Shown here: in pieces, positions 32,351 through 64,000 of the stretch
Position numbering within the stretch: the first letter of the stretch is position 1
How the letters are laid out: each line of letters begins with the position of its first letter
Source of the DNA: Patescibacteria group bacterium
Lineage (GTDB): Bacteria; Patescibacteriota; Patescibacteriia; JAXHNJ01
Reading direction: 5' to 3'
Assembly (NCBI GenBank): GCA_034520665.1
Contig: JAXHNJ010000001.1
Span: 194,579 to 258,578, forward strand
Length of the DNA stretch: 64,000 nucleotides
Translations under genes and position numbers: made by a program
The notes under the pieces: model-generated
Told to the model about the DNA's origin: nothing
What the model saw: the letters and a program-made list of their open reading frames with translations, nothing else
Databases searched by the model: none

Positions 32351-32382
32351 AGTTCATATAAAATTTATTTAATTTATCAAAA

Positions 32383-32405
32383 GCGGGTAATCCCCGGTTT
32401 TTTAA
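32383..32405 (+). terminator. putative intrinsic terminator after murF
   Basis: gcgggtaatccccgg stem followed by tttttt. Confidence 0.45.
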
Positions 32406-32473
32406 GTTTGATTAATTAATCAAAAATAGCTATAATTAAGGCATAATTTTATACGGTTCAAAACTTTCACAAT

Positions 32474-32532
32474 TTCGTATAATAAACAAATTTGAGGTGA
32501 TTATACGAAATCAATTTGTATAATAATGAGTT
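32474..32532 (+). repeat. 59-bp palindromic element, copy 1 of 3 (also 50821..50879 and 60415..60473)
   Basis: ttcgtataat-aaacaaatttgaggtg-attatacgaa (10-bp inverted repeat around a 16-nt spacer) followed by atcaatt-tgtataataatgagtt (a third half-site). Confidence 0.7.
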
Positions 32533-32641
32533 AAGTCGAATTTTTTCTTCTGCTAAAAATTTAAATCTCTAATATATATTTCCCACGCAAAGAAGCGCGC
32601 TAACTACAAACTTAATTGAAGTTTTAGAAACCTTTATAAGA

Positions 32642-33238
32642 TTGAGTAAATTAAACTATTATATGAACAAAACATTATATATTTTAATTGGAGTAATCTT
32701 AATTGTAGCTTCTTTCTATATAGGCTATACAATTAAAAGTCCTACATCTGCATCACAAGAAATACAAAATCTTAAAAATCAAATAACAAATTTACAGCAA
32801 CAAAATAGCCAATTGCAATCTAATGTAAAAGAGCTGCAAAACCAACTTCAAAATGAAAATGGCTCCGAGAATTCTCAAGATTCAAATACTGGAGCAAAGG
32901 GAAACATTGAATATGGTAAGGGGGATTGTATGCCTTGTGTCTGTGCAGATGAAGATTGTACTGGATGCCCAGAAAGAACTTATTCTGATTTTAGTGGTGA
33001 TATTTATTTTATTCTAAAAAGTGATTTAGATACTTTGGGAGATGGTGATTTTGATAACTTAATTGAATCTAGTGCTAAAACTCTGGTTACTAATGGGAAT
33101 TATGAAATCAGTTTGGCTCCTGGAGAATATTTCGTTATGCCAAGAGATGTTTATCAGTATGATAAAAATTTCATAAATATTTCTTCAGGGAATATGGTGG
33201 AGAAAGACTTCAAATTCTTTAAATGTACTTCATATTAA
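32642..33238 (+). CDS. cassette ORF: N-terminally anchored coiled-coil/Cys-containing protein, unknown function
   Basis: 198 aa. TM near N-terminus, Q/N-rich coiled coil, CxCxxxxCxxC cluster. Confidence 0.45.
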   Translation: MSKLNYYMNKTLYILIGVILIVASFYIGYTIKSPTSASQEIQNLKNQITNLQQQNSQLQSNVKELQNQLQNENGSENSQDSNTGAKGNIEYGKGDCMPCVCADEDCTGCPERTYSDFSGDIYFILKSDLDTLGDGDFDNLIESSAKTLVTNGNYEISLAPGEYFVMPRDVYQYDKNFINISSGNMVEKDFKFFKCTSY

Positions 33239-33356
33239 ATTAGAGCGCGCTCCCCACCCCAAGATAAGAGATTTAAATTTTTTAAACGCAGAAGAAAAAA
33301 CTCCTTCGCTTTGCTCGGTGACGCCTTGCAGGCTCTCGACATAAATGCCTCACACG

Positions 33357-33442
33357 ACTTAACAGCGATTATCTGGAATTTTCCTGCGAAAAATCCCAAA
33401 ATTCTGCTACGCAGAACTTCAGATAATCGCGATATATTAGAC
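33357..33442 (+). repeat. attC-like site
   Basis: R''-like ACTTAAC, L'' GCGATTATCTG ... L' CAGATAATCGC, R'-like ATTAGAC. Confidence 0.5.
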
Positions 33443-33495
33443 GAAATGCGAGCGAGCTGATTGATTTATAAATAGAATATGCTTTAAAATAATTT

Positions 33496-34041
33496 ATGAT
33501 GAAAATTATTATGGATTCAAAAATTAAGATCTTAATGGGATTTTTGATTATTGGAATTATTCTAATTGGTGTATTGTGGATTTTGAGTAACCGACCATCG
33601 GAAAATGTCCCCAATGAAGAAACATACAAAAAAGGCGAAAGTATAACATTTAAGATAGATGATAATGTTCAAATTTGCACCGATGATTTGCCTTTCTCTA
33701 TAATTAAATTTAATGAAGAGTCGGTAAAATTAAAACATTCCTGTATAGGAGAAATAGGTTCGGGTTTTGATCAATATTGTGAGAATGGGAAAATGGTTTT
33801 AAAACCAGTTTATCAACTTTGTGATTTCCTAGAGAAATGGTGTCGGGGTTGTAACGATGCACTTACTTGTCGGAATAAATTTATTCATGAAACATTTGTG
33901 TGGGATCAAAAGGAATATGTTGAAACAACTGAAGAATGTGAAGGCAAAATCATTCATAGAGAATTAAAAAAGCAGGTTCCAGAGGGTAAGTATCAAATTA
34001 TTGTAGACGGAAAGATTATCAAAGAATTTACAATAAAATAA
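33496..34041 (+). CDS. cassette ORF: N-terminally anchored Cys-rich protein, unknown function
   Basis: 181 aa, one N-terminal TM, 10 Cys. Confidence 0.45.
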   Translation: MMKIIMDSKIKILMGFLIIGIILIGVLWILSNRPSENVPNEETYKKGESITFKIDDNVQICTDDLPFSIIKFNEESVKLKHSCIGEIGSGFDQYCENGKMVLKPVYQLCDFLEKWCRGCNDALTCRNKFIHETFVWDQKEYVETTEECEGKIIHRELKKQVPEGKYQIIVDGKIIKEFTIK

Positions 34042-34095
34042 AATTTATGACGGCTCGCTCGCACTTAAAACCCTTCGGATTTTGCCCTTCGGGTC

Positions 34096-34172
34096 GTCTA
34101 ACAAGGGCTATACGGCTACGGCTTTCAGCTTTCGCCCAAATTTCGACTTCGTCAAAACTTCGTATAGCCCAA
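34096..34172 (+). repeat. attC-like site
   Basis: GTCTAAC-aa-GGGCTATACG ... CGTATAGCCC-aatac-GTTATAT: R''/L''...L'/R' organisation with a perfect 10-bp L''/L' pair. Confidence 0.55.
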
Positions 34173-34249
34173 TACGTTATATGAAATTGCGGGGCTATAA
34201 CAAATTTTTGCAAAAGTTTTATTAACCTATACAAAATAACTACAATATT

Positions 34250-34705
34250 ATGAAGAAGAAAATCCTAATCACAACAATCACCATTTTATTAGTAGCTTCT
34301 ATTACAATTATATATTTCTTTTTTGCCAATCAAAATCAATTACCAATATCGAAAAATGTGTCTCGGAATGTTTTAGAGATATGCAAAGAAAAAAGTAAAA
34401 TAGAGTGTCATGGCAATTGCATGGATGGTTTTGCAGAAATTGGATATTTTGATTCGCGAAAATATAGTAAACAAGACTTTTTAGATACTCCCGAGGAACT
34501 CTACAAAACATATGGGGAAAAAAGAGAAATGATCCTTGCTTCTCATTACCAAAGCAGCTGTGATCCTTGTGGAAACAAATTTGAGCTTAATAAAAATGGT
34601 GTTTTTCAAGAGGTTTCTTGTGAAGAATTTTTTGAAACAATTGAAAATATTAATAAATCCTGCAATGGTTGTGTGAACACAATATATTTACAAATTAGTG
34701 GATAG
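34250..34705 (+). CDS. cassette ORF: N-terminally anchored Cys-rich protein, unknown function
   Basis: 151 aa, N-terminal TM, 11 Cys. Confidence 0.45.
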   Translation: MKKKILITTITILLVASITIIYFFFANQNQLPISKNVSRNVLEICKEKSKIECHGNCMDGFAEIGYFDSRKYSKQDFLDTPEELYKTYGEKREMILASHYQSSCDPCGNKFELNKNGVFQEVSCEEFFETIENINKSCNGCVNTIYLQISG

Positions 34706-34784
34706 TAAAAATCCTGGCCCGGCAACTCTCCCTCACATCTTCGCTGTTCGGTCGGCACGCTGCACTCTCGCTATCGCTCGGCTC

Positions 34785-34874
34785 ACTTAACACGGCTTAT
34801 GCGGAAACCTCGTTGCACTTCGGTTTCCCAAATGCTCACTACGTTCGCACTTCGCATAAGCCGATACGTTAGGC
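34785..34874 (+). repeat. attC-like site
   Basis: ACTTAAC-ac-GGCTTATGCG ... CGCATAAGCC-gatac-GTTAGGC: a perfect 10-bp L''/L' pair. R' is GTTAGGC. Confidence 0.55.
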
Positions 34875-34919
34875 GATGTTGTGCTGATTTTATCCAGTAT
34901 ATAACCTAAATAAAGAAAC

Positions 34920-35504
34920 ATGAATAAATTTATCCTAGTCATTATTATCATCATTATTGGAGTGGGTATTTGGTGGTGGCAACAATCTGCCAATACTGTC
35001 ATTACGAATACTGGCTGGCTGACATATGAGAATAGAGATTACAATTTTGAACTGCAATATCCAAATGACTGGACCCCTCAAGAGTCGTCTTATGACGATA
35101 TAAATACTGAAGAAAACAAATGGGAACCCAAATATTGGGAAGATTGGAAGGTGGTAAAAAAGATATCTTTCAACACTAGTGTTGAATTTTTTTATCTTGA
35201 TGTTTATATCATGGATCAGAGTATTGAAAGTGTGCTAGACAAGGTAGGAAAAAATCATAGCAATTCGCCCTTTCAGCCTTCCTTAGAGGAAATAAAAATT
35301 AACGCCAATCAAGCTTATGTTACATCTGTTTGCGATTTGGGTTGTTGTTCTAAAGATGTTTATATTGCCAAAGATGAAAATACTACTATACAAATTGCTA
35401 GGGGAGCTGTTTGTAGCGTAGGATCAGAAGAAAATATACAAAAAGCTGAAAACAATACAAATACTTTTGAGCAAATTCTGACTACTTTTAAATTTGCGAA
35501 ATAA
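34920..35504 (+). CDS. cassette ORF: N-terminally anchored protein, unknown function
   Basis: 194 aa, N-terminal TM, W-rich. Confidence 0.45.
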   Translation: MNKFILVIIIIIIGVGIWWWQQSANTVITNTGWLTYENRDYNFELQYPNDWTPQESSYDDINTEENKWEPKYWEDWKVVKKISFNTSVEFFYLDVYIMDQSIESVLDKVGKNHSNSPFQPSLEEIKINANQAYVTSVCDLGCCSKDVYIAKDENTTIQIARGAVCSVGSEENIQKAENNTNTFEQILTTFKFAK

Positions 35505-35520
35505 AAATCAGCACAATATC

Positions 35521-35583
35521 GCCTAACAGCGTATATATGTTATTCCACTTCGCTCCACGGCGCATGATACGCAAACGTTAGAT
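35521..35583 (+). repeat. attC-like site (short)
   Basis: GCCTAAC-AGCGTATATATG ... CATGATACGCaaac-GTTAGAT. The upstream 16 nt (aaatcagcacaatatc) are the reverse complement of 34875-34890, the 5' end of this cassette. Confidence 0.55.
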
Positions 35584-35652
35584 GAAATAATTAAATTCTT
35601 TTGGCTATCGCCAAAAATTATTGGAACAAATTTTTATTTTATTTTTTAAGAT

Positions 35653-36711
35653 ATGAACAAGAATCAAATTATAACATTATCAGGATATAGCATCATTCAT
35701 GGAATTATAGATTTGTGCTGTGCGATAGTTGTTTTTAGTACATTGCTATATCATGGTTATGACGCAAGTGATGTTTTTATTTTTGTTGTGGCTTACAATA
35801 TAATTGCTTTTGGATTACAAGCACCTTTTGGATTGTTAGTGGATAAGTATCAAGTTCCTAAAGAAAGCGCATTTATTGGTTGTACTTTGGTTTTGTCTTC
35901 TTTTTTCCTATTCAACATTCCAGCTTTAGTGATAATACTATCTGGACTAGGGAATGCTTTTTTTCATGTTGGCGGAGGAAGCATTAGTTTGAATTTCAAT
36001 CCACAAAAAGCAACCGCTCCTGGAATTTTTGTTGCGCCGGGTGCGTTAGGACTGACAATTGGAATTTTGATTGGCAAAAGTGGCTCATTTATTTTTTGGC
36101 CTTTTGCATTACTACTTATTTCTTCATGTCTATTTATTATTTTTAGTAAAATTCCAGAGATTAATTATCAAAAAATATCAACTAAACCTAAAATAAATTA
36201 TTTTGAATTGGTAATACTATTGCTCTTGCTATCCGTATCAATAAGAGCATTATATGGTCTGACCGCTGTTTTCGCCTGGAAAGCAAATATTGCCTTGCTG
36301 TTTTCTCTAACTATTGCAGTAGTCGCCGGAAAAGCTTTAGGTGGTTTTTTGGCTGATAAATTTGGTTGGATAAAAACTGCTATTTTTGCTCTAATAATTT
36401 CCGCTCCCTTGCTTTCTTTTTTTCAAGGATCACCAATACTTGCAATAATAGGTGCATTCTTATTTCAAATTACTATGCCGATAACTTTAACAGCATTATC
36501 AAATATGCTTCCAGGCAGATCAGCTACCGCTTTTGGTTTAACAGTTTTGGCCTTAATAATCGGTGCCATTCCCGTTTATTTGGGGGCTAAGTCATTTTTA
36601 AGTACTCAATGGATTGCATTAATAATAATCATAATTTCAGCAAGTTCGCTACTTATTAGTTTTAAATTTCTGTATAATTATTTTAAAGGTCAACTCAAAA
36701 TAAATTTATAA
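35653..36711 (+). CDS. cassette ORF: polytopic membrane protein (MFS-transporter-like, ~10-12 TM)
   Basis: 352 aa, almost entirely hydrophobic helices with short loops. Confidence 0.4.
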   Translation: MNKNQIITLSGYSIIHGIIDLCCAIVVFSTLLYHGYDASDVFIFVVAYNIIAFGLQAPFGLLVDKYQVPKESAFIGCTLVLSSFFLFNIPALVIILSGLGNAFFHVGGGSISLNFNPQKATAPGIFVAPGALGLTIGILIGKSGSFIFWPFALLLISSCLFIIFSKIPEINYQKISTKPKINYFELVILLLLLSVSIRALYGLTAVFAWKANIALLFSLTIAVVAGKALGGFLADKFGWIKTAIFALIISAPLLSFFQGSPILAIIGAFLFQITMPITLTALSNMLPGRSATAFGLTVLALIIGAIPVYLGAKSFLSTQWIALIIIIISASSLLISFKFLYNYFKGQLKINL

Positions 36712-36727
36712 TTTAATCATAATAACT

Positions 36728-37009
36728 ATGAAAAAATTAAAAACAGTTCTAACAACCTTTTTCGTCTTTAGTATTTTCTCATTAATGTCCACTCAAAAAG
36801 CCTTAGCAGACTTAGTGCCGATAAATTATGGAGATGATACACCTTACGGACCAAACGTTAATTCAAACCCAGAGCCAAACGTTAATTCAAGCCCAGAGCC
36901 AAAAACATTTATTGATTTAATTGAGCCGCAACACATTATTATTGGCGGAGCGGTATTGGCTGTAGTAATAATATCTTTTGTAGTACTTTTTAAAATGAGA
37001 AAAAAATGA
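36728..37009 (+). CDS. cassette ORF: small secreted protein with C-terminal TM anchor and basic tail
   Basis: Signal peptide, PEPNVNS repeats, C-terminal hydrophobic segment plus KMRKK. Confidence 0.4.
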   Translation: MKKLKTVLTTFFVFSIFSLMSTQKALADLVPINYGDDTPYGPNVNSNPEPNVNSSPEPKTFIDLIEPQHIIIGGAVLAVVIISFVVLFKMRKK

Positions 37010-37341
37010 GATTTGAATACTATTCTTTAGCTCTAATTTTCACTCTAGTAATTGAGTTATCTGTAGCTTATATTTTAGGATTTAGGAATAAAAAAAGCAT
37101 TGTCACGATTATTTCTGCCAATCTTATAACACACCCTTTGCTTTGTTACTTTTTATGGATAAATTCATTTATTTTCATTATTCCTGTTAACTATTTCTCA
37201 ATTGTTGTTTTAGAAATATTGGTTATATTATTAGAATCAGCATTACTATTCTTCGCATTGAAACAACAATATTTAGATATGCTAAAAGTATCATTTGTCA
37301 TAAACACAACCTCTTTCCTTGTTGGATTATTATTATTTTAA
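37006..37341 (+). CDS. cassette ORF: small membrane protein (3 TM)
   Basis: 111 aa, hydrophobic. Start overlaps the upstream stop. Confidence 0.4.
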   Translation: MRFEYYSLALIFTLVIELSVAYILGFRNKKSIVTIISANLITHPLLCYFLWINSFIFIIPVNYFSIVVLEILVILLESALLFFALKQQYLDMLKVSFVINTTSFLVGLLLF

Positions 37342-37422
37342 AATAATTTTTAAATAATAGAAAAATAAAAATAAATTTGCCCAATAATAACTCGCTTACG
37401 CTCGTTGAATTTAATTACATTA

Positions 37423-37516
37423 TATTAACAGCATGTATGAGGCTACGGCTTTTTACAAAAGTCACCACCCAAATTGCTCTCTGCGGTCGCAATTTCTCAA
37501 ATCCCTGACGTTAGGT
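37423..37516 (+). repeat. attC-like site
   Basis: TATTAAC ... GTTAGGT. The internal block ggctacggctttttacaaaagtcaccaccca is homologous to the element at 39942..40035. Confidence 0.45.
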
Positions 37517-37632
37517 GAAATAGCCAGAAATCTTTAATTATTTTTAGAATTTCTTTGGCAATTTAATAGGTTGAACATAGCTTGTGATATAATATTATAA
37601 ATCTTAAAATATAAATTTTTAATCAAAAAAAT

Positions 37633-38535
37633 ATGGAATCATTAGAAAAATTTAGTAAAATTGAAAAAGAAAAACCAGAATATACATCAAAAATAAAGTT
37701 GTCATTCTTTCGCCATGCGGAAAAAGAAAAGGATAAATCAAAATCTGATTTAAAAATTAGACTAACAGAAGAGGGTAGAAAAAATAGTAAAAAGAAAAGT
37801 GATACTCTAAATATCAGGCAATCAGTCGTCTTTGGTAGTCCCCGTGAAAGAGCACAGGAAACAGCTTCTTTTAGAATGTCTGGAAATCAGGAAGAAATAA
37901 CAGGGGAAGAAACTTTTGAAGAATTAAAAGATAAATTAAATAAGGGATTAAAAGTTGGATCAAAAATTAGCGTAGATAAAAGATTAGATTCTGATTTGGA
38001 CATGGAAAGTGATTTTGGTAAAATCTCTTTAGAAAATTTTAAAAAGGGTCAATATCTAAAATTTTTAGTTGAGGAAAGCGATAGTTTGGCTAAAGAAAAA
38101 GATGATACTAAAGGTTTTACTTATTTGAAAAGTGCTTCAAATGTAGCAAAAATAATTGAAAAATATTTAAGCATTTCTAAACGATGGGATAAACTGGTGC
38201 AGGACCCACAAAAAAACTATGATGATACCTTAGAAAGATATTTTGGCACCCACTTAAGTGTTGGCGAGTGTTTTTTGGCTAAAGCAATAGAAGAGACAGA
38301 AGGTGAAGAAAAAAGAGATGAGTTTGTCAAAGCTCTCAATAATCAGGGATTTGATTTTAATGAGGGTTTTGAAATAGAAATTTTAAACAGCGAAAACGAA
38401 CCATCCGTTCATATATCTTTCAAAAAAGAACTTAGCGACAAAGAAGAAGGCAAAGAAGAAGTAAAAAACGTTTTTGAGTTTGATCAAAATCTATCCATAG
38501 ATACTATAAAAAAAATAGCGGAAAGTAATCAATAA
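37633..38535 (+). CDS. cassette ORF: acidic protein, possible histidine-phosphatase-superfamily (RHAE motif)
   Basis: SFFRHAEKE...LTEEG resembles the RHG/RHAE catalytic motif of the PGAM-like family. A similar motif occurs in the 61168..62223 ORF. Confidence 0.3.
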   Translation: MESLEKFSKIEKEKPEYTSKIKLSFFRHAEKEKDKSKSDLKIRLTEEGRKNSKKKSDTLNIRQSVVFGSPRERAQETASFRMSGNQEEITGEETFEELKDKLNKGLKVGSKISVDKRLDSDLDMESDFGKISLENFKKGQYLKFLVEESDSLAKEKDDTKGFTYLKSASNVAKIIEKYLSISKRWDKLVQDPQKNYDDTLERYFGTHLSVGECFLAKAIEETEGEEKRDEFVKALNNQGFDFNEGFEIEILNSENEPSVHISFKKELSDKEEGKEEVKNVFEFDQNLSIDTIKKIAESNQ

Positions 38536-38578
38536 ATTGCCAAAAAAATAATAAAGAAAAGAAATTTCTGTCTACGTC

Positions 38579-38674
38579 ACATAACAGCGTGTATCTGGTT
38601 CGCCCCTCGGCTCGCAAATTTCCCAAATTTTCTCCGCTACGCTCCGAAAACTTCTCATAAGCCCGATGTTATAC
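38579..38674 (+). repeat. attC-like site
   Basis: ACATAAC-AGCGTGTATCTGG ... GTTATAC. The upstream gaaatttctgtctacgtcac is the reverse complement of the sequence following R' at 37517-37535. Confidence 0.5.
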
Positions 38675-38736
38675 GAAATAACTAAATTCTCTTCTGCTAT
38701 CGTCGAAAAATTATTGGAACAAATTTATTTTTATTT

Positions 38737-39885
38737 ATGAATAATATTGAAAAAAAAATTCCTCTTGAAAATAAGGCTGAAACTATGAGAATACCTGAAA
38801 TTAATATTAGAGAAGAAAAGGGCGCAACGCTTTTATCAATTTTATTACGAGGCTACAATCAAGATTTTGGTAGCCACGACCATGAATTATCTCAAAGAGT
38901 AGATGAATATTTTGAACAAAATCCTCTTGACGAAAAATCAATCAAATTATTAAAAGAAATTAAAGCTCTAGAAGACGACGGCGTTGATGGGGAAACATTA
39001 TTCAACATTGTTTTAACACACGACGATGAAGACAGGGTTGAATCTTTGCTTGAATTTATTTCTAAACATAAAGAGTGCGTAAAAAAACCTGAGAAACTAA
39101 GAAATAATCTTCTGAAAGCAATCAATGATCTAGAAAATAAATTACCAGAAGCATTAAAACAAGATTTTGACAAAGCCACATCTGAAGATATCAAAATACG
39201 AGAGCAAAACATAGAAGATTCCAAACAAAGAATAAAAAAATTGATTGATTTTTTTAGGCCACAAACTAATACAACAAAAACTAAAGAAGTAGTCTTGCTC
39301 CCTACCGATTTTTTAATGTCTGAAAAATCGGGAGTCGCTTTTAATTTTGGGGATAATCTTTATATTTCTTCACATGTCGATAATCCGCATAATTTAGAGC
39401 ATGAATTCTTGCATTGCATCATTAACCCGATCGTTGATAAACTAGATAAAAAATTATCAGATGAACAAAAACAAAAAATAAGCAATCTCGCGAGTGATAA
39501 ACTAAAAGTTGAGCAAGGCTATGGGAAAGAATATTACAGTTTACTTTGCGAAGAATTCATCAGAACTTACAATGATGTTTTTCAACACGGGAAGCAACCG
39601 ATAGTTTATAATGATTTTGTTCAAAAAATTGAAAGCTTAGATGAAGAACAATTTAATTCTTTACTTTCGAAAAAAGAGAGTCTAAAAAATCGTTGCGCCC
39701 AATTGCAGATAAACACATTTGAAGATTTTAAAAACAAAAGTCAAGAATATTTTGACGCTTTTGAAAAAAATGATTTACGAGAAATCATATTTAAATTCTA
39801 CCAGGATTTCACAAAAGAAAAAGAAAAAAATCCAAATTTAGATTTTGAGGAGTTTGTTTTAAAGGAATTTAATAATAGAATATAA
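38737..39885 (+). CDS. cassette ORF: hypothetical protein with HExxH motif (possible zinc metallopeptidase)
   Basis: 382 aa. Single HEFLH motif (LEHEFLHCIIN). No TM. Confidence 0.3.
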   Translation: MNNIEKKIPLENKAETMRIPEINIREEKGATLLSILLRGYNQDFGSHDHELSQRVDEYFEQNPLDEKSIKLLKEIKALEDDGVDGETLFNIVLTHDDEDRVESLLEFISKHKECVKKPEKLRNNLLKAINDLENKLPEALKQDFDKATSEDIKIREQNIEDSKQRIKKLIDFFRPQTNTTKTKEVVLLPTDFLMSEKSGVAFNFGDNLYISSHVDNPHNLEHEFLHCIINPIVDKLDKKLSDEQKQKISNLASDKLKVEQGYGKEYYSLLCEEFIRTYNDVFQHGKQPIVYNDFVQKIESLDEEQFNSLLSKKESLKNRCAQLQINTFEDFKNKSQEYFDAFEKNDLREIIFKFYQDFTKEKEKNPNLDFEEFVLKEFNNRI

Positions 39886-39941
39886 ATAAAAATAAATTTG
39901 CCCGAATAATGCTCGCTGTCGCTCGCGAATTTAGTTACATC

Positions 39942-40035
39942 AGCTAACACGGCATATCTGGTTACGGCTTTTACAAAAGTCTCCACCCATACCTCTCGAC
40001 AAGCTCGGGGCATCAGATATACGCAAACGTTAGGC
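39942..40035 (+). repeat. attC-like site
   Basis: AGCTAAC-acggc-ATATCTG ... CAGATAT-acgcaaac-GTTAGGC. Outer and inner boxes are mutually complementary. Confidence 0.55.
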
Positions 40036-40060
40036 AAAATTTTTCTTTAAGAAATATTTT

Positions 40061-40678
40061 ATGATAAATATAAAAGAATGTAACGAGCCATTAATTGATA
40101 TAAAAAAGTTGTGCCCAAATATCAAGATAGACCTGGGCGGGCGGCGAATAAGAAAAGAAAAAACGGCATATCTTCGAAAAACAGTGGCTGAAATGATTTT
40201 GCATGCCGAAAAGGAATTGCCCAGAGGTATGACGTTTATTATCGATGACGCATGGAGACCTCAGTATATCCAAGAGGAAATCACACAGTGGTTTATAAAA
40301 CGTTTCTCTAAAAAATATCCCAGCTGGCCTAAAAATAAAATTGTAAAAGAAGTCGAAAAATATGTTGCTCCTTCAAATGGAAAATATGCCTCTGGGCACA
40401 TGACAGGTGGTGCAGTAGATTTGAGGTTATTGAAAAATGGCAAAAAAGTTCCGATGAAAAGCTCAAAACTAATATATCAAGAAAATGCAAAATCATTTCA
40501 GCCTAAACTTCCACAATATATTCAAAAAAATAGAAATATAATGTTCACCGCTCTAAAAAAAGCTGGTTTGTCTAATTATCCGAAAGAATATTGGCATTGG
40601 TCGTATGGCGATATTTGGTGGGCAAAAAAAAACAAAAAGAAAATAGCTATCTATGGTGTGATAAAAAATATTTCTTAA
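40061..40678 (+). CDS. cassette ORF: peptidase M15 (VanX / D-Ala-D-Ala dipeptidase-like)
   Basis: SGHMTGGAVDL (SxHxxGxAxD) and EYWHWSYGD (ExxH/WHW) motifs of zinc D,D- or L,D-peptidases. Confidence 0.6.
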   Translation: MINIKECNEPLIDIKKLCPNIKIDLGGRRIRKEKTAYLRKTVAEMILHAEKELPRGMTFIIDDAWRPQYIQEEITQWFIKRFSKKYPSWPKNKIVKEVEKYVAPSNGKYASGHMTGGAVDLRLLKNGKKVPMKSSKLIYQENAKSFQPKLPQYIQKNRNIMFTALKKAGLSNYPKEYWHWSYGDIWWAKKNKKKIAIYGVIKNIS

Positions 40679-40793
40679 AGTAAAACTCAAGCCACGCTGC
40701 GCTCTCGCTCCACTCCGTTACGCTCGGGTCGGACAACAGCGTATATCTGCCTCCGCTACGCTCCAGAAACTTCTGATAAGCCCGATGTTAGGC
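40664..40793 (+). repeat. attC-like site (long form)
   Basis: Ends with GTTAGGC. Its first 27 nt (aaaaaatatttcttaaagtaaaactc) are the reverse complement of 40036-40060, the 5' end of this cassette. Internal AACAGCGTATATCTG box. Confidence 0.5.
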
Positions 40794-40818
40794 GAACCTT
40801 TGTTTGAATAAAATTTTT

Positions 40819-41550
40819 ATGTCAATATTTTTCAATAATAATAAAGAACAAAAAGAGTATATTAAGGAAAAACTTATTAAAGTATATCCCAAATTCAAAA
40901 CAGGAGGATATTTTTTTAGGCAATATTTAAAAAATTATATTAATAGCAATTCAATCATTTTAGATGCAGGTTGCGGAAGTGATGGAATAATATCAGAATT
41001 TCAGTTTATGCCGAAATTAATTATTGGCGTTGATATAAACAAAAGATTATTAGATAAAAATAAAATCGTAAATAAAAAAATAGTTTCTGATTTAGAACAC
41101 ATCCCGTTAGGCAATAATTCTGTAGATATTGTTATTTCTGAATTTGTCTTAGAGCATTTGCGTAATCCATCTACTGTTTTTAAAGAAATATCTAGAGTTC
41201 TGAAACCTAAAGGAATATTTATTTTTATTACCCCAAACATCATAAACCCTATCATGGCTTTAAGTAAAATCTTACCCCATTTTTTTCATACACTATTAAG
41301 AATTAAATTATTAAAAAAGGGAAAAGAAACGCATCCTACATATTACAGAGCAAATATTTACTTAAGGTTACTAAAATTAGGAGAAGAAACAGGATTTCAT
41401 AATTATGAAATTATAAGAGCTGGTAACCCTGAATATTTTGGATTCTGCAAGCCACTCGTGCCAATGTCAATATTTTTTGAAAAACTAATTGACAATAATT
41501 TTTTAAATATTTTTAAAATGTACCTTGTTGGTTGTTTTATAAAAAAGTAA
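40819..41550 (+). CDS. cassette ORF: class I SAM-dependent methyltransferase
   Basis: ILDAGCGSDG (motif I), VISEFVLEHL, LKPKGIFIF. The ORF track starts at a TTG (40804); the first ATG is 40819. Confidence 0.65.
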   Translation: MSIFFNNNKEQKEYIKEKLIKVYPKFKTGGYFFRQYLKNYINSNSIILDAGCGSDGIISEFQFMPKLIIGVDINKRLLDKNKIVNKKIVSDLEHIPLGNNSVDIVISEFVLEHLRNPSTVFKEISRVLKPKGIFIFITPNIINPIMALSKILPHFFHTLLRIKLLKKGKETHPTYYRANIYLRLLKLGEETGFHNYEIIRAGNPEYFGFCKPLVPMSIFFEKLIDNNFLNIFKMYLVGCFIKK

Positions 41551-57587: not shown

Positions 57588-57785
57588 AAAAAAACAAAAA
57601 AAGTGCACGTCTTTCTAATATCTAGCTCTCCATATAAAAAAATAGCTAACAAGATATTAAAAGAATTAAAAGATGATGGAAATGGATGACGATTTTCAGG
57701 ATTTTTTGAGAAAAGGGGAGTGAGGTAATTTATTTTTTTATATCTTGACAGGTTATTTCAGTTATGATACAATTATGTCATATAT

Positions 57786-58421
57786 ATGAAATACAAGTCA
57801 AAAACTAATTTGCTTGAAGAGTTAAAATCTTTACCTTATTTTACTAAAGAACGTATTTATCAATTAGGTAAAAACGATAAGATTTATAATTTAAAAAATA
57901 GCACTTTAGATACCTATATAAGCCGATATTTAAAAAATAGAGAAATTATTGCCTTAAAAAGAGGTATGTATATATCTAATAATTTTTACCATAAAAATAG
58001 TGATGATCTTTCTTATATATACTTTTTAGCAAATATTATCAGAAAACCTTCATACATTAGTTCGTGGACGGCTCTAGAGTATTATGGTTTATCTACAGAA
58101 GTAATAAATAGTACTATTTCAGTAACAACAAAGGTAACTAGAAATTATGAAACTAAAATTGGAAATTTTACCTATAAATCTATAAAAAATGATTTATTTA
58201 CCAATTTTTCCTTAATAAATAAAAAATTTAATTTTTATATTGCCCCACCCTCAAAAGCACTTTTTGACATGCTATATTTTAAAACACGTCAATATAAAGA
58301 CGTAAAATATCATGATATAGATCTATTGATTAAAGAGTTACGTGTTGATATTAAGTCAATGGATAAAAAAGAGGTAAAAAAATTTAATTTAATGATAAAA
58401 GATTACTATGATTATGGATAA
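57786..58421 (+). CDS. AbiEi-like antitoxin / transcriptional regulator (type IV TA)
   Basis: N-terminal wHTH with ...YISRYLKNREIIALKRGMYIS (AbiEi-type LxxxGxLxRLxRGxY). Overlaps the downstream gene by 14 bp. Confidence 0.5.
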   Translation: MKYKSKTNLLEELKSLPYFTKERIYQLGKNDKIYNLKNSTLDTYISRYLKNREIIALKRGMYISNNFYHKNSDDLSYIYFLANIIRKPSYISSWTALEYYGLSTEVINSTISVTTKVTRNYETKIGNFTYKSIKNDLFTNFSLINKKFNFYIAPPSKALFDMLYFKTRQYKDVKYHDIDLLIKELRVDIKSMDKKEVKKFNLMIKDYYDYG

Positions 58422-59706
58422 TCAAATTATTTTATTAATTAAAAAAAAGCTACGAGAAATACCTGTTACTAGTGGACCGGTAGCTTTAATAAAAAGAAAT
58501 TCCGCTAAGGAGCAATTACAATATTATGTTTTAAACTTTATTTATAATAATTCTAAATATAATAAGTGGATTATGTATGGTGGATCAGCTCTTCGTATTT
58601 GTCACAAATTAAATAGAATGTCAGTAGACTTAGATTTTGAAGTTAATCATAAAATTACTAATAAATTTTTAGGTGATTTTGAAAGTAAGATAGTTTCTTA
58701 TTTTAAAAATGATTATAATGTTGATTCAGGAATACTTACTACTAGTATTAATAATAAAAGAGGTATTACATTAAAGTTTAAAATTGGAGATAAGATTGGA
58801 TTGAATTTTGCTTCAAAGATTGTAAAAGTTAAGATTGACTTGAATTATTTTAAAGTTCCTGAAACTGTCGTGGTAGAAAATCATCCTATTAATGAAGATC
58901 AATTTTCTTTTATTATCAGAACATACAACATGTCTGCCTTAATGTCCAGTAAAATAGCGGCTATTTTTTTACGTGGTAAACGTGGAGTGGGAAAAGAAAT
59001 TTATAAAGAAAAAGGCAGGGACATTTATGATTTATTGTGGTATATGTCAAAAAAAACTATTCCCGATTTGGATTATTTAAATGCCAAGAAAATTAATTTT
59101 AATAATCCAAAAGATCTTTTTGATAAGTTAACTGTTAAGATATTAAATAATAAAAAAACAGATAAAAATCTTAAACAAGATTTACCGCCTCTTTTTTTAG
59201 ATCAAGCATATATAAATAACTGGATTAATAATTGGCGAGATAGCTACTTATATTTATTAAAAGAATATAAATTTTCAAGTGTGAAAGATTTAAAAAAAAT
59301 AGAAGTAATTCAAGATTTTTCTACGGGTATATATTCATTTGTATATTTTTATAACAGTAAGGAAAGTACTCTAATAAGAATAATATTTAATATTAGTGAA
59401 TATTGGATTGATTTTAAAGAGGGAAATTTATCCATTGAAATTAGTAAAAATGTTAAAGACCATTTTGATTTTAAAACTAGAGTAATTACTAATCGCCCCT
59501 CATCTAAAAAGAAATTGATGCAATATGCTGAATTATTTCTTCGAAAAACTGAAAAATATTTCAAAAAGTCTAACAATATAATTATGAACAACACTATTTC
59601 TACTAAGGTTATTCGCATGACATCTGATAATTTAAAATTAGAAAAAGAAATTCTGTTAAATAAAGAGACTCTTATTAAATGTGAATTAGAAGACTTATTG
59701 CCGTAA
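58408..59706 (+). CDS. AbiEii/AbiGii-family nucleotidyltransferase toxin
   Basis: KWIMYGGSALRICHKLNRMSVDLDFEV matches the GG(T/S)AL...R.S.DlDf nucleotidyltransferase signature of AbiEii. Confidence 0.6.
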   Translation: MIMDNQIILLIKKKLREIPVTSGPVALIKRNSAKEQLQYYVLNFIYNNSKYNKWIMYGGSALRICHKLNRMSVDLDFEVNHKITNKFLGDFESKIVSYFKNDYNVDSGILTTSINNKRGITLKFKIGDKIGLNFASKIVKVKIDLNYFKVPETVVVENHPINEDQFSFIIRTYNMSALMSSKIAAIFLRGKRGVGKEIYKEKGRDIYDLLWYMSKKTIPDLDYLNAKKINFNNPKDLFDKLTVKILNNKKTDKNLKQDLPPLFLDQAYINNWINNWRDSYLYLLKEYKFSSVKDLKKIEVIQDFSTGIYSFVYFYNSKESTLIRIIFNISEYWIDFKEGNLSIEISKNVKDHFDFKTRVITNRPSSKKKLMQYAELFLRKTEKYFKKSNNIIMNNTISTKVIRMTSDNLKLEKEILLNKETLIKCELEDLLP

Positions 59707-59745: not shown

Positions 59746-60300
59746 ATGAAAGCTTTAATCTTGCCTGGTAATAACAATACTTTAATCACCAACAATTGGT
59801 ATCTTTTTGTTAAAGAAAAATTAGAAAAACTGGGTCTAGAAATCACAGCCAAAAATATGCCGGATCCGAAATAGCCCACCGAAAAATTTGGTTGCTCTTT
59901 ATAAAAAAGAGACTTGAGGGAGACGAAAATTCCATTTTAATTGACCACTCCACTGGAGCGGTAGCCACTTTGCGTTATCTTGAAAAAAATAAATGCCGTT
60001 TGGTAATATTAGTATCTTGTTATTATACTGATCTTGATGATAAAATGAAAAAAAAGTGGTTATTTTGATGATCCTTGGTTATGGAAGAAAATAAAAAATA
60101 ATGCTGGGAAAATAGTTATTTTTACCTCAAGGGATGACCCTTATATTCCTATTGACCAACCGCGTTTAATTAAAGAAAAAGTTGAGGCCGAGTATCGTGA
60201 ATACAAAGATGAAAAACTTTTTGGTATGAATAGGAAAAAAGAATTTCCTGAAATTATAACGGTTGTTAAAAAAATGATAGAAAATCATAAAGAAAAATAA
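59746..60300 (+). pseudogene. frameshifted remnant of an alpha/beta serine hydrolase (YdeN/RBBP9-like)
   Basis: MKALILPGNNNTLITNNWYLFVKEKLEKLGLEITAKNMPDPK* is followed in other frames by ...LIDHSTGAVATLRYLEKNKCRLVILVS... and ...GKIVIFTSRDDPYIPIDQPRLIKEKVEAEYREYKDEKLF.... At least two frameshifts. No ORF of 60 aa or more survives. Confidence 0.55.
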
Positions 60301-60302
60301 AT

Positions 60303-60485
60303 GACTATTTTCAGGATTTTTTGAGAAAAGGGGAGTAGGAGAAGAGGTTTTTTTATTGGTAAAAAAAATGGTAAACTATAAACAGTTTCGGATTATATAA
60401 TGGTTTAATAAAAATTCGCATAATAAACAAATTTGAGGTGATTATACGAAATTAATTCGTATAATAACGAGTTGTCAGAAATTTT
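60303..60485 (+). repeat. ~180-bp segmental repeat, copy 2 (see 50708..50890)
   Basis: ~93% identical to 50708-50890, including the promoter-like ttattggtaaaaaaaatggtaaactataaa and the 59-bp palindromic element. Confidence 0.75.
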
Positions 60486-60504
60486 TAAAAAATTATAAAT
60501 TCTT

Positions 60505-60951
60505 ATGAAATATACAATAACAGTCGGTGTTTTTGGGATAATTACAAACGAACAAGATAAGGTTTTGCTTTGTCATCGCAATGACTATGATTTATGGAAT
60601 CTACCAGGTGGCGGACTTGAAAAAGGCGAAACTCCTTGGGAGTGTATTGTCCGTGAGTCTAAAGAAGAAACGGGTTTAGATGTGAAAGTTTCTCGTCTTA
60701 TGGGTATTTACAGCAAACCTCATAAAGATGAAGTAGTTTTTATGTTCGTTTGTAATGTTATCGATGGTAAACTAACACTGAATGAAGAAGCGAGAGATTT
60801 AAGATATTTTGCTCTTAACGAAATCCCAAAAAACACCGTTCCAAAACAGGTCGAGAGATTAAAACATTATTTCGAGGATAAAGAGAAAATATATTTAAAA
60901 GAGCAAAGAGGAAAATCAGCTATTGATATGGTTAAAGAGGGGAATTTATAA
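60505..60951 (+). CDS. NUDIX hydrolase
   Basis: GGGLEKGETPWECIVRESKEETGL is a canonical Nudix box. Confidence 0.8.
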   Translation: MKYTITVGVFGIITNEQDKVLLCHRNDYDLWNLPGGGLEKGETPWECIVRESKEETGLDVKVSRLMGIYSKPHKDEVVFMFVCNVIDGKLTLNEEARDLRYFALNEIPKNTVPKQVERLKHYFEDKEKIYLKEQRGKSAIDMVKEGNL

Positions 60952-60989
60952 TTTTTTTAAAACTGCTCCGCTATCGCTCCGTTCGGCTC

Positions 60990-61079
60990 GTCTAACAGAA
61001 GTATATGCGGTTCGCTCGTTGCCCTTCGCTCTCCCAAATTTTTGCTTCGCAAAAACTTCTCTTAATCCCGATGTTATAT
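60990..61079 (+). repeat. attC-like site
   Basis: GTCTAAC-agaa-GTATATGCGG ... cccgat-GTTATAT. Same family as 38579 and 40664. Confidence 0.5.
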
Positions 61080-61167
61080 GACATATTTTTCTAAAAATTT
61101 TTCTTTATTGATATAATTTAAGGTAGAAATTTTGATTTAATTTTATTTAAGAGGGAGATTCAATAAG

Positions 61168-62223
61168 GTGTTTTCATTTGCTCCGCTAACACTTAAAGCA
61201 AGTGAAAACGAGTCAATAAATTTTATGATGAACACACCAGAAAATTTTTCCAAACCACCACAACAAGAGCTGCTTCCTAATATAGAGGCTGAAAAAAAAC
61301 CTCATTATATTATTATGATAACCAGACATGCTGAACGCCTGCCATCTGGTGAATTAAGCCCCGAGGGTATTGCCCATGCAAAAGTTAAGGGCGAGAAGTT
61401 AAAAGATGTTGAAGTGCTAAAATCATACGCGAGCGACCATCCGAGCGCGAGGACATATGAAACAGCGGAAAATATCGGCAGTGAAGCGGATATTAAATCG
61501 CCATTGACTGGTGAACGCTATAAGACAAAAAAAGTTAAAGGTATCCAATATGATGTTCTTGACCCGGTAATTTTGAAAGATGCTAAACTGTCGATTGATG
61601 AAAATACTTTAAAAGAAATTGACAGAGATCACCCTGAATTGACACAATCAATAAATTTAGCGTTAGCAGAAGGCGCGCCAACTAAAATTAATTCACAAGG
61701 GGAAACAATGGTGGATATTGAAAAATTACCAAAAAATATTCAGCAACAAATCGCGCCAATCAGACAAAAAAACCAAAAACTTGCCTTTGAAAAAATACTT
61801 AATAATCCCGAAGCTGTACAAAGCATGATGGCCGGTTTATCGCATCAAATTTTTGAAAAAGAATTAATATTAGATAGATACGCAAGAGTCAGAAAGAAAA
61901 AAGAGCAACCACCCAAAAAAGATGTGGTTATAAATATTAACACCCATGGATTATTTATTGAGTCTCTACTGAAAAATACGGGGATATTCGTCAAACCAAA
62001 CGGCGAGGATGTTTCTGGTATTGACAATATGGACAGCGATGAACTTGGGGACTACATCCAGCCAGCTGAATCAATCTATTTGGATATCGGTACCGATCCG
62101 CATAATATTCCTGAACGTATACCTGTAATTTTTGAAAGCGAGCGAGACGTCAAGGGTAAGGTTTATATAGATAGCGCAAAATTAGAGCAGTATAGTAAAC
62201 ATTATAAAGCAGAAGTAAAATAA
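61168..62223 (+). CDS. cassette ORF: hypothetical protein, possible histidine-phosphatase-superfamily (GTG start)
   Basis: ITRHAERLPSGELSPEGIAHA resembles the RHxxR...LTxxG motif of PGAM-like phosphatases. RBS gagggag lies 11 nt upstream of the GTG. Confidence 0.3.
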   Translation: MFSFAPLTLKASENESINFMMNTPENFSKPPQQELLPNIEAEKKPHYIIMITRHAERLPSGELSPEGIAHAKVKGEKLKDVEVLKSYASDHPSARTYETAENIGSEADIKSPLTGERYKTKKVKGIQYDVLDPVILKDAKLSIDENTLKEIDRDHPELTQSINLALAEGAPTKINSQGETMVDIEKLPKNIQQQIAPIRQKNQKLAFEKILNNPEAVQSMMAGLSHQIFEKELILDRYARVRKKKEQPPKKDVVININTHGLFIESLLKNTGIFVKPNGEDVSGIDNMDSDELGDYIQPAESIYLDIGTDPHNIPERIPVIFESERDVKGKVYIDSAKLEQYSKHYKAEVK

Positions 62224-62227
62224 TATC

Positions 62228-63751
62228 ATGACTAAAATTTTAAAAAGCGATCAAATTATCAATGGCATGATAAATACCAAATGGTATTTTTTGACAAAGC
62301 GACCAGATATACCACCTTTGCCTGTTTGGTATAAAATGAAATATAGCGCTTTAAGAAAAGAGAATAAAAAAATTTACGGTACTGGCATCCCGTGGGCTTG
62401 CTTTTGGTATAACAATAATACTGAGTTGTATTTGCATGGGGATGAGTATAAAACCGCAATCCAAAATGCCACGAAAATATTATATTCGAAACAAAAATTA
62501 AACAAGCATTTATTAATGCTAAAACAATCCTGCCACGATGCTAAAAAGGCGGCGGCTATTTTTAACAGGTGCCACTGGGAAAGTTATGATAATGTTAAAA
62601 TTTACAATCTGTACAAAACAGTTGTTGATAAATATGTTTTATTGTATATTTACGGCTTTATAACTTGGTGTACGCTGGTATTGCAAAATGACGCATATAA
62701 AATTGTTACCGATCATAAAAAAGAATTAGAGAATATTACTCTTACTCCGGATCAAGCGCTTGGCATCCTAATTGTTCCCGATGATACTACTATATATCAA
62801 GAAAAGGAGGAAAAATTAGCTAAATTATCAAAAAAATATAGGCGCACGGTAGCCGGATATAAGAGTGAAAAATATTTATCAGATAATCACCATCAACTAA
62901 ACAAAGAAATAAAAAAATTTATCAAACAGTACTGCTGGGTTGGCTTTAATTATGTCGGTCCGGCGCTGGATTATAAAACTGTAGTAAAAGAGTTATTACA
63001 AGCACACGATAATACCAAACAAAAAACACCAACTAAAAAAGAAATTCACAAAATTTGTAAATTTAACGAAAGAGAAAAGCACATTTTTTACGCCCTTGAA
63101 ATGATTTCTTATACCAAAGATTTAAGAAATACGACTGATGATTATATCCATTATTGTTTCAGCATTTTTTACGATGAAATCTCAAAACGAACCGGACTAA
63201 CAAAAACAGACATTCAATTTTTATGGGATAATGAACTGGAAAAATTATTAAAGAGTGATAACAATATTAGTCGGCCATATATTCAAAAGAAAAGGAAATT
63301 TTGCGCGGCCTTTGCTTTACTAAAATCCTTAAAGATGAAAGAATATTATATCGGCCACGAAGCCAGCAAGAAAAGGGAATTCGTCTTTAAAAATAGTAAT
63401 CAAATATTAGAAAAAATATCGCAAAATATTATTAAAGGTACAATAGCGTCGACTGGTGTGGTGACCGGAAAAGTAAAAATTATTAATAATATTAAAGAGG
63501 TTAAGAAGGTTAAGAAAGGCGATATTTTAGTTACAGGTATGACCAGCCCTAAATATATGTCCGCGATTTACAATTCAAACGCAATTATCACTGATGACGG
63601 AGGATTGACTTGTCACGCGGCAATTATCGCAAGAGAACTTAAAAAACCATGCATTATTGGAACCAAAACCGCTACCCGAGTATTAAAGGACGGTGATTTA
63701 GTCGAAGTTGATGCTAATAATGGAATAGTTAAAATTATCCAACGAAAATAA
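62228..63751 (+). CDS. PEP-utilising-enzyme mobile (phosphohistidine) domain protein with unknown N-terminal domain
   Basis: C-terminal ...GMTSPKYMSAIYNSNAIITDDGGLTCHAAIIARELKKPCIIG matches the PEP-utilizers swivel domain (GGxT(S/C)HAAIIARExGxP). Confidence 0.55.
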   Translation: MTKILKSDQIINGMINTKWYFLTKRPDIPPLPVWYKMKYSALRKENKKIYGTGIPWACFWYNNNTELYLHGDEYKTAIQNATKILYSKQKLNKHLLMLKQSCHDAKKAAAIFNRCHWESYDNVKIYNLYKTVVDKYVLLYIYGFITWCTLVLQNDAYKIVTDHKKELENITLTPDQALGILIVPDDTTIYQEKEEKLAKLSKKYRRTVAGYKSEKYLSDNHHQLNKEIKKFIKQYCWVGFNYVGPALDYKTVVKELLQAHDNTKQKTPTKKEIHKICKFNEREKHIFYALEMISYTKDLRNTTDDYIHYCFSIFYDEISKRTGLTKTDIQFLWDNELEKLLKSDNNISRPYIQKKRKFCAAFALLKSLKMKEYYIGHEASKKREFVFKNSNQILEKISQNIIKGTIASTGVVTGKVKIINNIKEVKKVKKGDILVTGMTSPKYMSAIYNSNAIITDDGGLTCHAAIIARELKKPCIIGTKTATRVLKDGDLVEVDANNGIVKIIQRK

Positions 63752-63869
63752 TAAGGTGTCTTGGCTCAAAAAATTCATCCCTAATTCCTTTTTATTTTTC
63801 AAAACGAAAAAAATAAATTTTCTTTTGAAGATAAAAAATCTCTCTGCAAATGAATAATAAGGATAAAAA

Positions 63870-63935
63870 AATGACTTCTCCATTTCACTCCGTTTCGCTC
63901 CGCAAAACATCAGATATAGGCAAACCTTGTGCCAG
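63870..63935 (+). repeat. degenerate attC-like remnant
   Basis: catcagatataggcaaaccttgtgcc parallels catcagatatacgcaaacgttaggc at 40012-40035. Confidence 0.3.
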
Positions 63936-64000
63936 GCCTCATTTCTTGCCAAGAGGATTTTTTTCTTAAATTGAACATAATAAGATATTATATTAAAATG

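Follow-up and report, generated by a model that had tools for sequence, protein, structure and literature searches.

The operational definition of an integron has two parts: an integrase carrying a specific extra domain, and attC recombination sites that fold into hairpins with extrahelical bases. Recombination of a folded single strand is regarded as requiring both the extra domain and the extrahelical bases. In archaea, Ghaly et al. (2022, Sci Adv, PMC9668308) described integrons and attC clusters that have no integron-integrase (CALINs), most of the arrays being without a detectable IntI; they reported attI sites with the canonical insertion point and proposed a cassette pool that crosses domains. 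Only integrases with the IntI-specific domain, six in all, were accepted, and the candidate phyla radiation (CPR) lay outside the scope of that study. In the literature searched we found no description of CPR integrons, or of integron-type arrays served by an integrase without the additional domain. Here we describe a 64,000-nucleotide stretch of a Patescibacteria genome (contig JAXHNJ010000001.1, positions 194,579 to 258,578; "the window", in whose coordinates all positions are given unless another contig is named). We consider it highly probable that it carries three chromosomal integron-type cassette arrays, whose cassettes are moved by a tyrosine recombinase at a G↓TT boundary (the arrow marking the boundary) and enter at a repeated site, D2.

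As in sedentary chromosomal integrons (e.g., the Vibrio cholerae superintegron) and CALINs, these arrays are co-oriented and consist mostly of one-gene cassettes, with imperfectly palindromic sites that have ...AAC and GTT... end boxes and fall into a few related sequence families. The G↓TT boundary, the R' half that is part of the next cassette, the attI-like site at the head, the toxin-antitoxin and Fic cargo and the better folding of the bottom strand are also features of both. Unlike those systems, the window has three attI-like copies and, for at least 32 kb, no integrase, and the host is a Patescibacterium. The sites themselves differ from those of sedentary chromosomal integrons and CALINs in having a 1-nt spacer on the R'' side and 3-5 nt on the R' side, instead of a symmetric unpaired spacer and extrahelical bases, in a conserved inner motif (CCCAAATTT) between two sub-hairpins, and in an R box extended to ~12 bp. 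In addition, complementarity between cassette ends reaches 20-100 nt, and the sites are missed by a model trained on class 1 attC sites.

The window has a G+C content of ~33%, and nearly every gene from 22 kb onward is on the + strand. An earlier note on this DNA had claimed a co-directional run of open reading frames (ORFs) from ~32.6 kb to the window end, and indeed all 31 credible ORFs between 32642 and 63751 are on the + strand. Array A occupies 32531-47040, between murF and a histidine-kinase gene (from ORF calls, Pfam and the synteny of relatives), array B 50878-57587 (ORFs, Pfam), and array C 60472-64000, continuing past the window end. Most ORFs are separated by elements of 63-199 nt with one common layout. 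A left box whose last letters are TAAC or CAAC is followed by a single A and an L'' arm of 10-12 nt; next come two small hairpins on either side of a conserved CCCAAATTT-like motif, then (A)ACTTC, the complementary L' arm, 3-5 unpaired nt and GTTA.... We count 14 intact and 3 partial attC-like hairpin sites, all intergenic and on the + strand, where the note had put the number at 18-25. Its statement that an element follows nearly every ORF holds for most of them; at 41.7-46.6 kb, the Fic gene and four further ORFs are flanked by other repeat families, D7 and D19. Of its four quoted inverted repeats, all present, those at 33365/33420, 34794/34853 and 52633/52722 are exact; the arm at 34105 pairs with 34161 rather than 34151.

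A covariance model, R2, was built from 13 of the window sites. It scored sites of the window at 40-76 bits, matched only the + strand, between genes, from 33.3 to 61.1 kb (D7 and D19 were unmatched), and recovered two truncated copies outside its training set, at 46471-46547 (E = 2.5e-4) and 55176-55288 (E = 2.8e-5). There was no R2 match below E = 0.1 on the minus strand or in 1-32 kb of the window. Regular-expression scans for AAC...GTT hairpins missed most sites and gave equal numbers on both strands. Array A contains nine cassettes with sites of this family: A1 (33357-33442; R2 60.1 bits, and fold), A2 (34096-34182; 72.5 bits, with a 10-bp L stem), A3 (34785-34874; 72.7 bits), A4 (35521-35582; a short form, from R2 and end complementarity), A5 (37423-37516; L boxes poorly paired, from fold and R2), A6 (38579-38674; R2 and end complementarity), A7 (39942-40035; R2), A8 (40731-40794; a short form, R2) and A9 (41640-41734; fold and R2), whose R' has degenerated to ATTATAT. 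Array B has the long site B1 (51605-51803, 199 nt; found by its fold, with R2 matching the right part at E = 0.09), B2 (52624-52742; R2), B3 (53462-53560; R2) and B4 (53916-54013; fold and R2), in which the crossover G is mutated (AAACCTTATAG). Site C1 lies at 60990-61078 (R2), and is also present in a contig, L001, from the Logan short-read assemblies. The partial sites are the two truncated copies, i.e., a left half that is 93% identical to the left half of B3 (46471-46547, repeat D4) and a left half 95% identical to B2 (55176-55288, repeat D8), and a right-half remnant at 63870-63937 (repeat D3; CATCAGATATAGGCAAACCTTGTGCC, crossover G changed to C).

The structure of these sites is kept while their sequence varies, as the earlier note had proposed. 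In the window alignment, 6 of 11 L-stem pairs are changed on both sides, a degree of covariation reached in none of 500 shuffles, and the stem is 81% paired, as against 22-46% when the partner is slid. In 126 independent sites from public metagenome-assembled genomes (MAGs), the stem was 91% paired (slid controls 25-46%), 10 of 11 pairs showed compensatory changes, and again none of 500 shuffles did as well; this alignment was fitted to the covariance model, which favours the structure. Across these 126 sites and the window, R'' conforms to R-Y-H-T-A-A-C and R' to G-T-T-A-D-V-Y, position 5 of R' being frequently T and not purine; with AAC and GTT at least 97% conserved, the end boxes are of the attC type, as claimed.

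Folding of the bottom strand, a check that the note had suggested, gave the outcome expected of attC sites. The bottom strand was predicted to be the more stable in 13 of 14 window sites and in 120 of the 126 others (mean 2.7 kcal/mol), and among mismatches there were 42 bottom-strand G.T wobbles versus 16 on the top strand. Because of this bias in stability and in wobbles, the constrained strand is the antisense DNA, and not the mRNA. In the predicted folds, the 5' (R''-side) spacer is 1 nt in 126/126 sites and the 3' (R'-side) spacer is 3-5 nt, and there are no single-base bulges in the 11-bp L stem of the model; the extrahelical bases that the note had expected were not seen.

The boundaries of the cassettes provide a second line of evidence. 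Past the G↓TT that closes a site, the sequence can pair with the ...AAC box of the site that follows it downstream, i.e., the R'' of the same cassette. The match of the cassette start with its own R'' is 7/7 or 8/8 for A1, A4, A9, B1, B2 and B4, and the complementarity often extends over 20-56 nt. When 12-nt boxes were compared, own pairs matched at 7.9/12 positions versus 6.6 for adjacent pairs, and 13 of 20,000 permutations were as good. In A4, the R'' (GCCTAAC) and 17 further nt are complementary to 34868-34891, where the cassette of this site starts, and in A6 the 53 nt ending at R'' (38533-38585) are complementary to the first 56 nt of its cassette (37510-37565). The same holds at the heads of arrays: the first junction of array A, GTTAAGTC, is complementary to GACTTAAC, the R'' of its first cassette, and the first cassette of array B begins with GTTGTGCG... 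(26 nt), complementary to 51586-51611. A G↓TT boundary with complementarity to the cassette's own R'' was also found in five contigs from other sources (L019, L023, L060, L067 and L106). Judged from sequence, this combination classically marks cassettes that form circles and insert again at G↓TT.

Complementarity between the untranslated 5' and 3' ends of cassettes covers 20-100 nt, far past the 7-bp R boxes. Examples are 32536-32573 with 33264-33303, 37510-37565 with 38533-38585, 38710-38738 with 39882-39910 and, in L019, ~4080-4213 with 1307-1440. We know of no such long complementarity between leader and trailer in classical cassettes. In a circular or single-stranded cassette it would lengthen the R stem, with the ORF looped out. 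A conserved leader, (TTGACA/ATGATA)GGCTTTTCAAAAAGGGGAATAAATTTG(A/T)TTTTTTCTTTATTAGAAAGGGGTAT, was also observed before unrelated ORFs in different genomes, with an inverted copy after the ORF (window 41770-41830, 43233-43320 and 44528-44622; L019 ~4130-4190; L145 ~7620-7690), and it may be a cassette-borne promoter or 5' element.

Each run of cassettes is headed by a copy of D2, a repeat of ~80 nt present at 32454-32530, 50801-50877 and 60395-60471, all on the + strand. Within D2 there are three repeats of the TCGTATAAT type, the first and third direct and the second inverted, and its end reads ...AA(C/T)GAG↓TT; copy 1 ends ...TTTGTATAATAATGAG↓TT, with the G of G↓TT at 32530, and copy 2 ends ...TTCGTATAATAACGAG↓TTGTGCG. 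The copies diverge exactly past GAG↓TT, where the cassette-specific complementarity starts. D2 is homologous to sites that adjoin recombinase genes in contigs L060, L106, L122, L131 and L145, lying 100-150 nt from the recombinase start in these relatives; no intI adjoins D2 in the window. We interpret D2 as an attI site, because its homologues in other genomes adjoin a divergent tyrosine recombinase. Its relatives occur in Uhr-, Moran-, Falkow-, Kerfeld-, Magasanik- and Wolfebacteria and in archaeal MAGs. A D2 20-mer had no match in GTDB genomes and one unrelated chance match (L002) in JGI metagenomes, and the three-repeat pattern had no match in IMG/VR. At the attI junctions (50860-50890 in the window, and in L106, L131, L122 and L145), the attI core, CGCATA(T)AA-ACGAG-TTAGGCGAAAT or CGCATATAA-ACGAG-TTAGGCGAAAT, resembles the dif site of E. 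coli, GGTGCGCATAATGTATATTATGTTAAAT, a similarity that serves as a lead only. Similarly, the cassette-start consensus GTTAKRYGAAAT resembles the XerD arm, TTATGTTAAAT.

Read on the minus strand, the spacer asymmetry agrees better with the canonical model, which raised the idea of a reversed orientation, with crossover at the left AAC box. This was rejected, because D2 conservation stops at GAG↓TT and there is no hairpin between D2 and the first ORF.

Comparison with relatives suggests how the arrays came to be at this locus. All MurF homologues found were from Patescibacteria, the closest named ones from Kerfeld- and Buchananbacteria. Contigs encoding MurF proteins of 77% and 69% identity have the order mraZ-mraW-ftsL-ftsI-murF, followed by genes for a GAF histidine kinase, an asparaginase-like protein and a 197-aa protein, and the syntenic relatives (L012-L014) have neither an array nor D2. 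In the window, the latter three genes form an island at 47159-50743 (+ strand); they are not cassettes, by Pfam and by the gene order in L012-L014 (49-74% identity). Because murF directly precedes the kinase gene in the relatives, array A (32.5-47.0 kb) represents a 14.7-kb insertion into a 111-nt spacer, and because murF, kinase, asparaginase and 197-aa genes are contiguous there, the arrays are lineage-specific insertions. Arrays B and C lie after the 197-aa gene. Since conserved core genes fill 47159-50743, there are three arrays and not the single continuous one of the earlier note. As to cassette polymorphism, the relatives compared, with MurF at 69-77% identity, are without the arrays altogether.

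The site family is widespread in public CPR and archaeal MAGs, and is not unique to this genome. A stricter version of the site motif, scanned over 596 Gb (in which we calculate that ~3 chance matches would be expected), was found at 120 or more GTDB MAG loci. By record title, the matches listed comprise 30 from CPR, 53 from archaea (DPANN, Methanosarcinales, anaerobic methanotrophic archaea (ANME), Thermoplasmatota and others) and 37 from other or unclassified sources, several of them on contigs of 0.1-0.8 Mb. In these listed loci R2 gave 212 matches below E = 1e-3, often in co-oriented arrays. A looser motif, applied to IMG/VR, gave one true site, in L019, a 71-kb phage-like contig (UViG_3300001335_000566) encoding a DnaB-like helicase and an SMC-like ATPase. 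This site is near-identical to B2 apart from a 20-nt GC-rich insertion in the latter. It belongs to a single cassette (1214-4213, minus strand) with an 845-aa N6-methylase/restriction-modification gene, whose borders are G↓TTATACGC on one side and, on the other, its own GCGTATAAC-hairpin-G↓TT. Cassettes can evidently land at secondary GTT sites in mobile genomes.

Using phmmer with IntI1 as query, we found a tyrosine recombinase in 11 of the listed loci (E = 5e-44 to 3e-21). All 11 adjoin the array and are divergently oriented, and six of the loci are from CPR (two Uhrbacteria, and one each of Falkow-, Moran-, Magasanik- and Kerfeldbacteria). Between each recombinase and the first cassette there is a site that ends like D2, e.g., TTCGCATAATAACGAG↓TTATCTG in L122, TTCGCATATAAACGAG↓TTATCGG in L131 and GTCGCATATAAACGAG↓TTAGGCG in L106. 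Two further homologues, picked solely for their long contigs (one being the complete Wolfebacteria genome CP011209.1), both had attI and attC sites alongside. The array-adjacent recombinases are ~270 aa long and keep the catalytic residues and a C-terminal (I/V)KSPL(D) motif as in IntI1. A MAFFT alignment showed that they lack the ~42 residues opposite IntI1 208-250, i.e., the IntI additional domain. Their matches to TIGR02249 (190-234 bits; cut-off 265) came in two stretches that skip profile positions 179-236. The integron-integrase model gives them higher scores than the XerC or XerD models do, and their best NCBIfam match was NF040815 recomb_XerA_Arch (216-239 bits; cut-off 220). Thus, the suggestion in the earlier note that the recombinase could be non-IntI was apt: those beside related arrays are IntI-like, without the IntI-specific domain.

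The additional domain is reportedly required for the activity of IntI1 (work of Messier and Roy in 2001), and in the VchIntIA structure of MacDonald and colleagues (2006) it is said to contact the extrahelical bases of attC. Sites without bulges, with constant spacers of 1 versus 3-5 nt, are consistent with recombinases that lack this domain. The hosts of the motif matches, as with the archaeal arrays of PMC9668308, include Woese- and Pacearchaeales, Methanosarcinales, ANME, Methanofastidiosales and Thermoplasmatota; unlike the integrases accepted there, the recombinase beside the present site family is without the IntI-specific domain. The supplement of PMC9668308 held no accession or sequence overlapping the matched loci, and no sequences with these motifs.

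Each cassette consists, in order, of TT, a leader, the ORF(s), a trailer, R'' (RYHTAAC), A, L'', two inner hairpins around CCCAAATTT, L', 3-5 nt and G. In the mechanism that we propose, excision would occur by recombination at G↓TT between the folded bottom strands of two consecutive sites, and new cassettes would enter at D2 through the action in trans of a short IntI-like recombinase. This enzyme would be encoded elsewhere in the genome, outside the 64 kb, and would probably belong to the same short IntI-like/XerA-like family (~270 aa, without the IntI additional domain). A promoter near attI, or leaders carried by the cassettes, may drive expression. The presence of half sites, hybrid L boxes, two crossover G to C mutations and a pseudogene indicates that the arrays are partly decaying.

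The integron-like reading is supported by G↓TT boundaries with own-R'' complementarity, by attI-like heads, by absence of the arrays from syntenic relatives, and by arrays beside a recombinase elsewhere. Several points weigh against it. There was no PF00589 match among 40 ORFs of the window in Pfam searches; tblastn with the 11 array-associated recombinases found no gene or remnant in the window (E > 0.5), although array C extends past its end and a more distal gene may follow. With no recombinase in the window, the arrays may or may not be active in this genome, and might be relics. The spacers of 1 nt versus 3-5 nt and the lack of single-base bulges are unlike canonical attC, and the L boxes are poorly complementary in six window sites. 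A surrogate canonical model, narrow in that it was trained on 11 class 1 attC sites, gave hits in the window only on three sites, at E = 1.5-5, i.e., at false-positive level. Taxon labels of short-contig MAGs may reflect mis-binning. The link between the short recombinase and the sites is drawn from gene neighbourhood, and the recombinase, whose family is very abundant and keeps 70-87% identity from one CPR class to another, might simply be a housekeeping Xer located next to the arrays. With 14 intact sites and no integrase in 64 kb, the locus corresponds to a CALIN (at least two attC sites, no integrase nearby), provided that the sites are attC, and not to a complete integron, which would have an integrase gene next to the array; the recombinases beside homologous arrays are themselves without the additional domain.

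Three other explanations must be weighed. In an ordinary CALIN, the cassettes would be canonical, a classical IntI with the additional domain would be encoded elsewhere or lost, and the short recombinase would be incidental. The R'' and R' boxes, G↓TT boundaries and attI-like head are indeed all classical, and attC arrays, mostly without IntI, have been found in the same archaeal orders with IntegronFinder and HattCI (Ghaly et al., PMC9668308). We nevertheless regard this explanation as unlikely. None of the 11 recombinases beside arrays of this site family has the additional domain, and all 11 occupy the divergent position of an integrase with a D2-like attI. The non-canonical spacer geometry is constant in 126 sites, and the two models each miss the other family, the class 1-trained model detecting class 1 sites, of which R2 detects none. 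The suggestion that the hairpins are repetitive extragenic palindromes (REP), miniature inverted-repeat transposable elements (MITE) or terminators at gene ends, with a structure that acts in mRNA and no site-specific recombination, draws on their position between genes and downstream of ORFs, and on a few terminator-like matches that overlap them. It is largely refuted, and we consider it extremely improbable. The scattered copies in both orientations that the earlier note associated with such elements did not appear in these 64 kb: the sites have one orientation throughout and no copies in the 32 kb of flanking genome. It is the antisense strand that folds better, with A.C exceeding G.U mismatches on the mRNA-sense strand, and the ends are complementary across each ORF. 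Moreover, the whole block is missing from syntenic relatives, related loci have a recombinase and attI adjacent, and an Rfam scan gave no match. A tRNA scan was empty, and sigma-70 and terminator scans were uninformative.

The third explanation draws on the Xer/dif system (XerA in archaea) and the integrative mobile elements exploiting Xer (IMEX). If the short recombinase were a XerA-like dimer resolvase, D2 would be dif or a derivative of it, and the cassettes would be IMEX-like elements at dif. The NF040815 match and the abundance of the family fit this, as do the CGCATAA-type and TTA...AAAT-type arms of the recombination site. Integration of the CTX phage, an IMEX at dif, uses a folded single-stranded hairpin as substrate, like the one predicted here. 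Against this, active dif sites would not be stable as three direct copies in 28 kb, which is how D2 occurs, and D2 is made of three repeats and a gap of 16 nt, not of an 11-6-11 palindrome. Unlike Xer/dif and IMEX, the present arrays comprise many independent cassettes, each with its own hairpin; the recombinase gene diverges from the array, and attI is built of several repeats. The recombinases also favour the integron-integrase model over XerC/XerD and share the IntI1-like C-terminal motif. We therefore consider the Xer/dif explanation quite improbable, and retain integron-type arrays as the preferred one.

Some features of the sites and their surroundings deserve description. The end of the 197-aa gene is repeated: its 3' end plus 60 nt (D1), followed by D2 copy 3, form a duplicated junction at 60297-60471 (95%/93% identity to 50702-50892), and a D1 remnant at 57682-57720 repeats the last 40 nt of the gene. 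Because the gene end recurs (50702-50800, 57682-57720 and 60297-60395), once with 60 nt and attI, a segmental duplication of the platform junction is suggested. The 197-aa protein has, by eye, a ribbon-helix-helix-like C-terminus; Pfam gave no match. Six sites have L'' and L' arms of mixed families with poor pairing (38579-38674, 40731-40794, 41640-41734, 60990-61078, 37423-37516 and 53916-54013). They look like hybrids joined at the central CCCAAATTT motif, and could have arisen by deletion or homologous exchange between neighbouring sites. The crossover G is changed to C at ~54004 and ~63926 (AAACCTT for AAACGTT), a change expected to fix the adjoining cassettes in place. A GC-rich motif, CC(C/G)(T/C)CCAGAGG(C/T)GGGCAGGCA(G/C)CCCT, occurs three times (52646-52671, 55198-55223 and 41843-41868); in B2 and its truncated twin it is the 20-nt insertion, within inner hairpin 1, that the L019 site does not have.

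The cargo includes Fic, AbiEi/AbiEii, two HD hydrolases, two methyltransferases, an M15 peptidase, NUDIX and asparagine synthase, as well as small Cys-rich membrane proteins and one frameshifted hydrolase; the pseudogene that the earlier note had placed in the array region was confirmed at 59746-60290. The 3' part of array A comprises Fic (42062-43210) and the four ORFs flanked by other repeats, and one multi-gene cassette (35653-37341) has three overlapping or adjacent membrane-protein ORFs (352, 93 and 111 aa) with a single attC site. Array B consists of DUF218-like, HD, TehB-like methyltransferase, Zn-ribbon, HD and asparagine synthase cassettes. After it comes an AbiEi-like/AbiEii toxin-antitoxin pair (57786-59706, + strand), whose homologues in L039 (52-55% identity) form a two-gene cassette flanked by attC sites. 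Array C has a NUDIX cassette, followed by histidine-phosphatase-like and PEP-utilizer-domain genes. Cargo is common to separate arrays, Fic at 77% identity and AbiE at 52-55%. In the core part of the contig, we also observed a heliorhodopsin gene (16502-17308, + strand; Pfam PF18761, E = 3.4e-103).

Two short-read Logan contigs of the same organism, L003 (SRR26473340_328203) and L001, stop ~150 nt past murF, at the D2 repeat, and contigs from SRR26473340 that match window proteins are short, breaking at repeats. Because the contigs stop at D2, routine MAG assemblies probably break or lose such arrays.

The arrays account for ~28 kb of accessory DNA (~14.7 kb in array A and ~13 kb after the 197-aa gene) near the cell-division gene cluster, and would extend integrons to the CPR. 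The cassette system appears to operate without the additional domain or extrahelical bases, and the standard integrase test would miss it. One family of cassette sites would join CPR, DPANN, other anaerobes and at least one phage-like element. More tentatively, and at somewhat less than even confidence, we suggest that there is a large unrecognised class of integrons in the ultrasmall bacteria of the CPR and in DPANN, methanogen-related and other archaea, with a short Xer-like/IntI-like integrase that has no additional domain, attC sites without extrahelical bases and a dif-like attI. If this is true, the recombinase missing from most "integrase-less" archaeal arrays would be one of this class. 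The class would, in addition, represent a living intermediate between Xer/dif and classical integrons, and the origin of integrons from Xer/dif would become directly testable.

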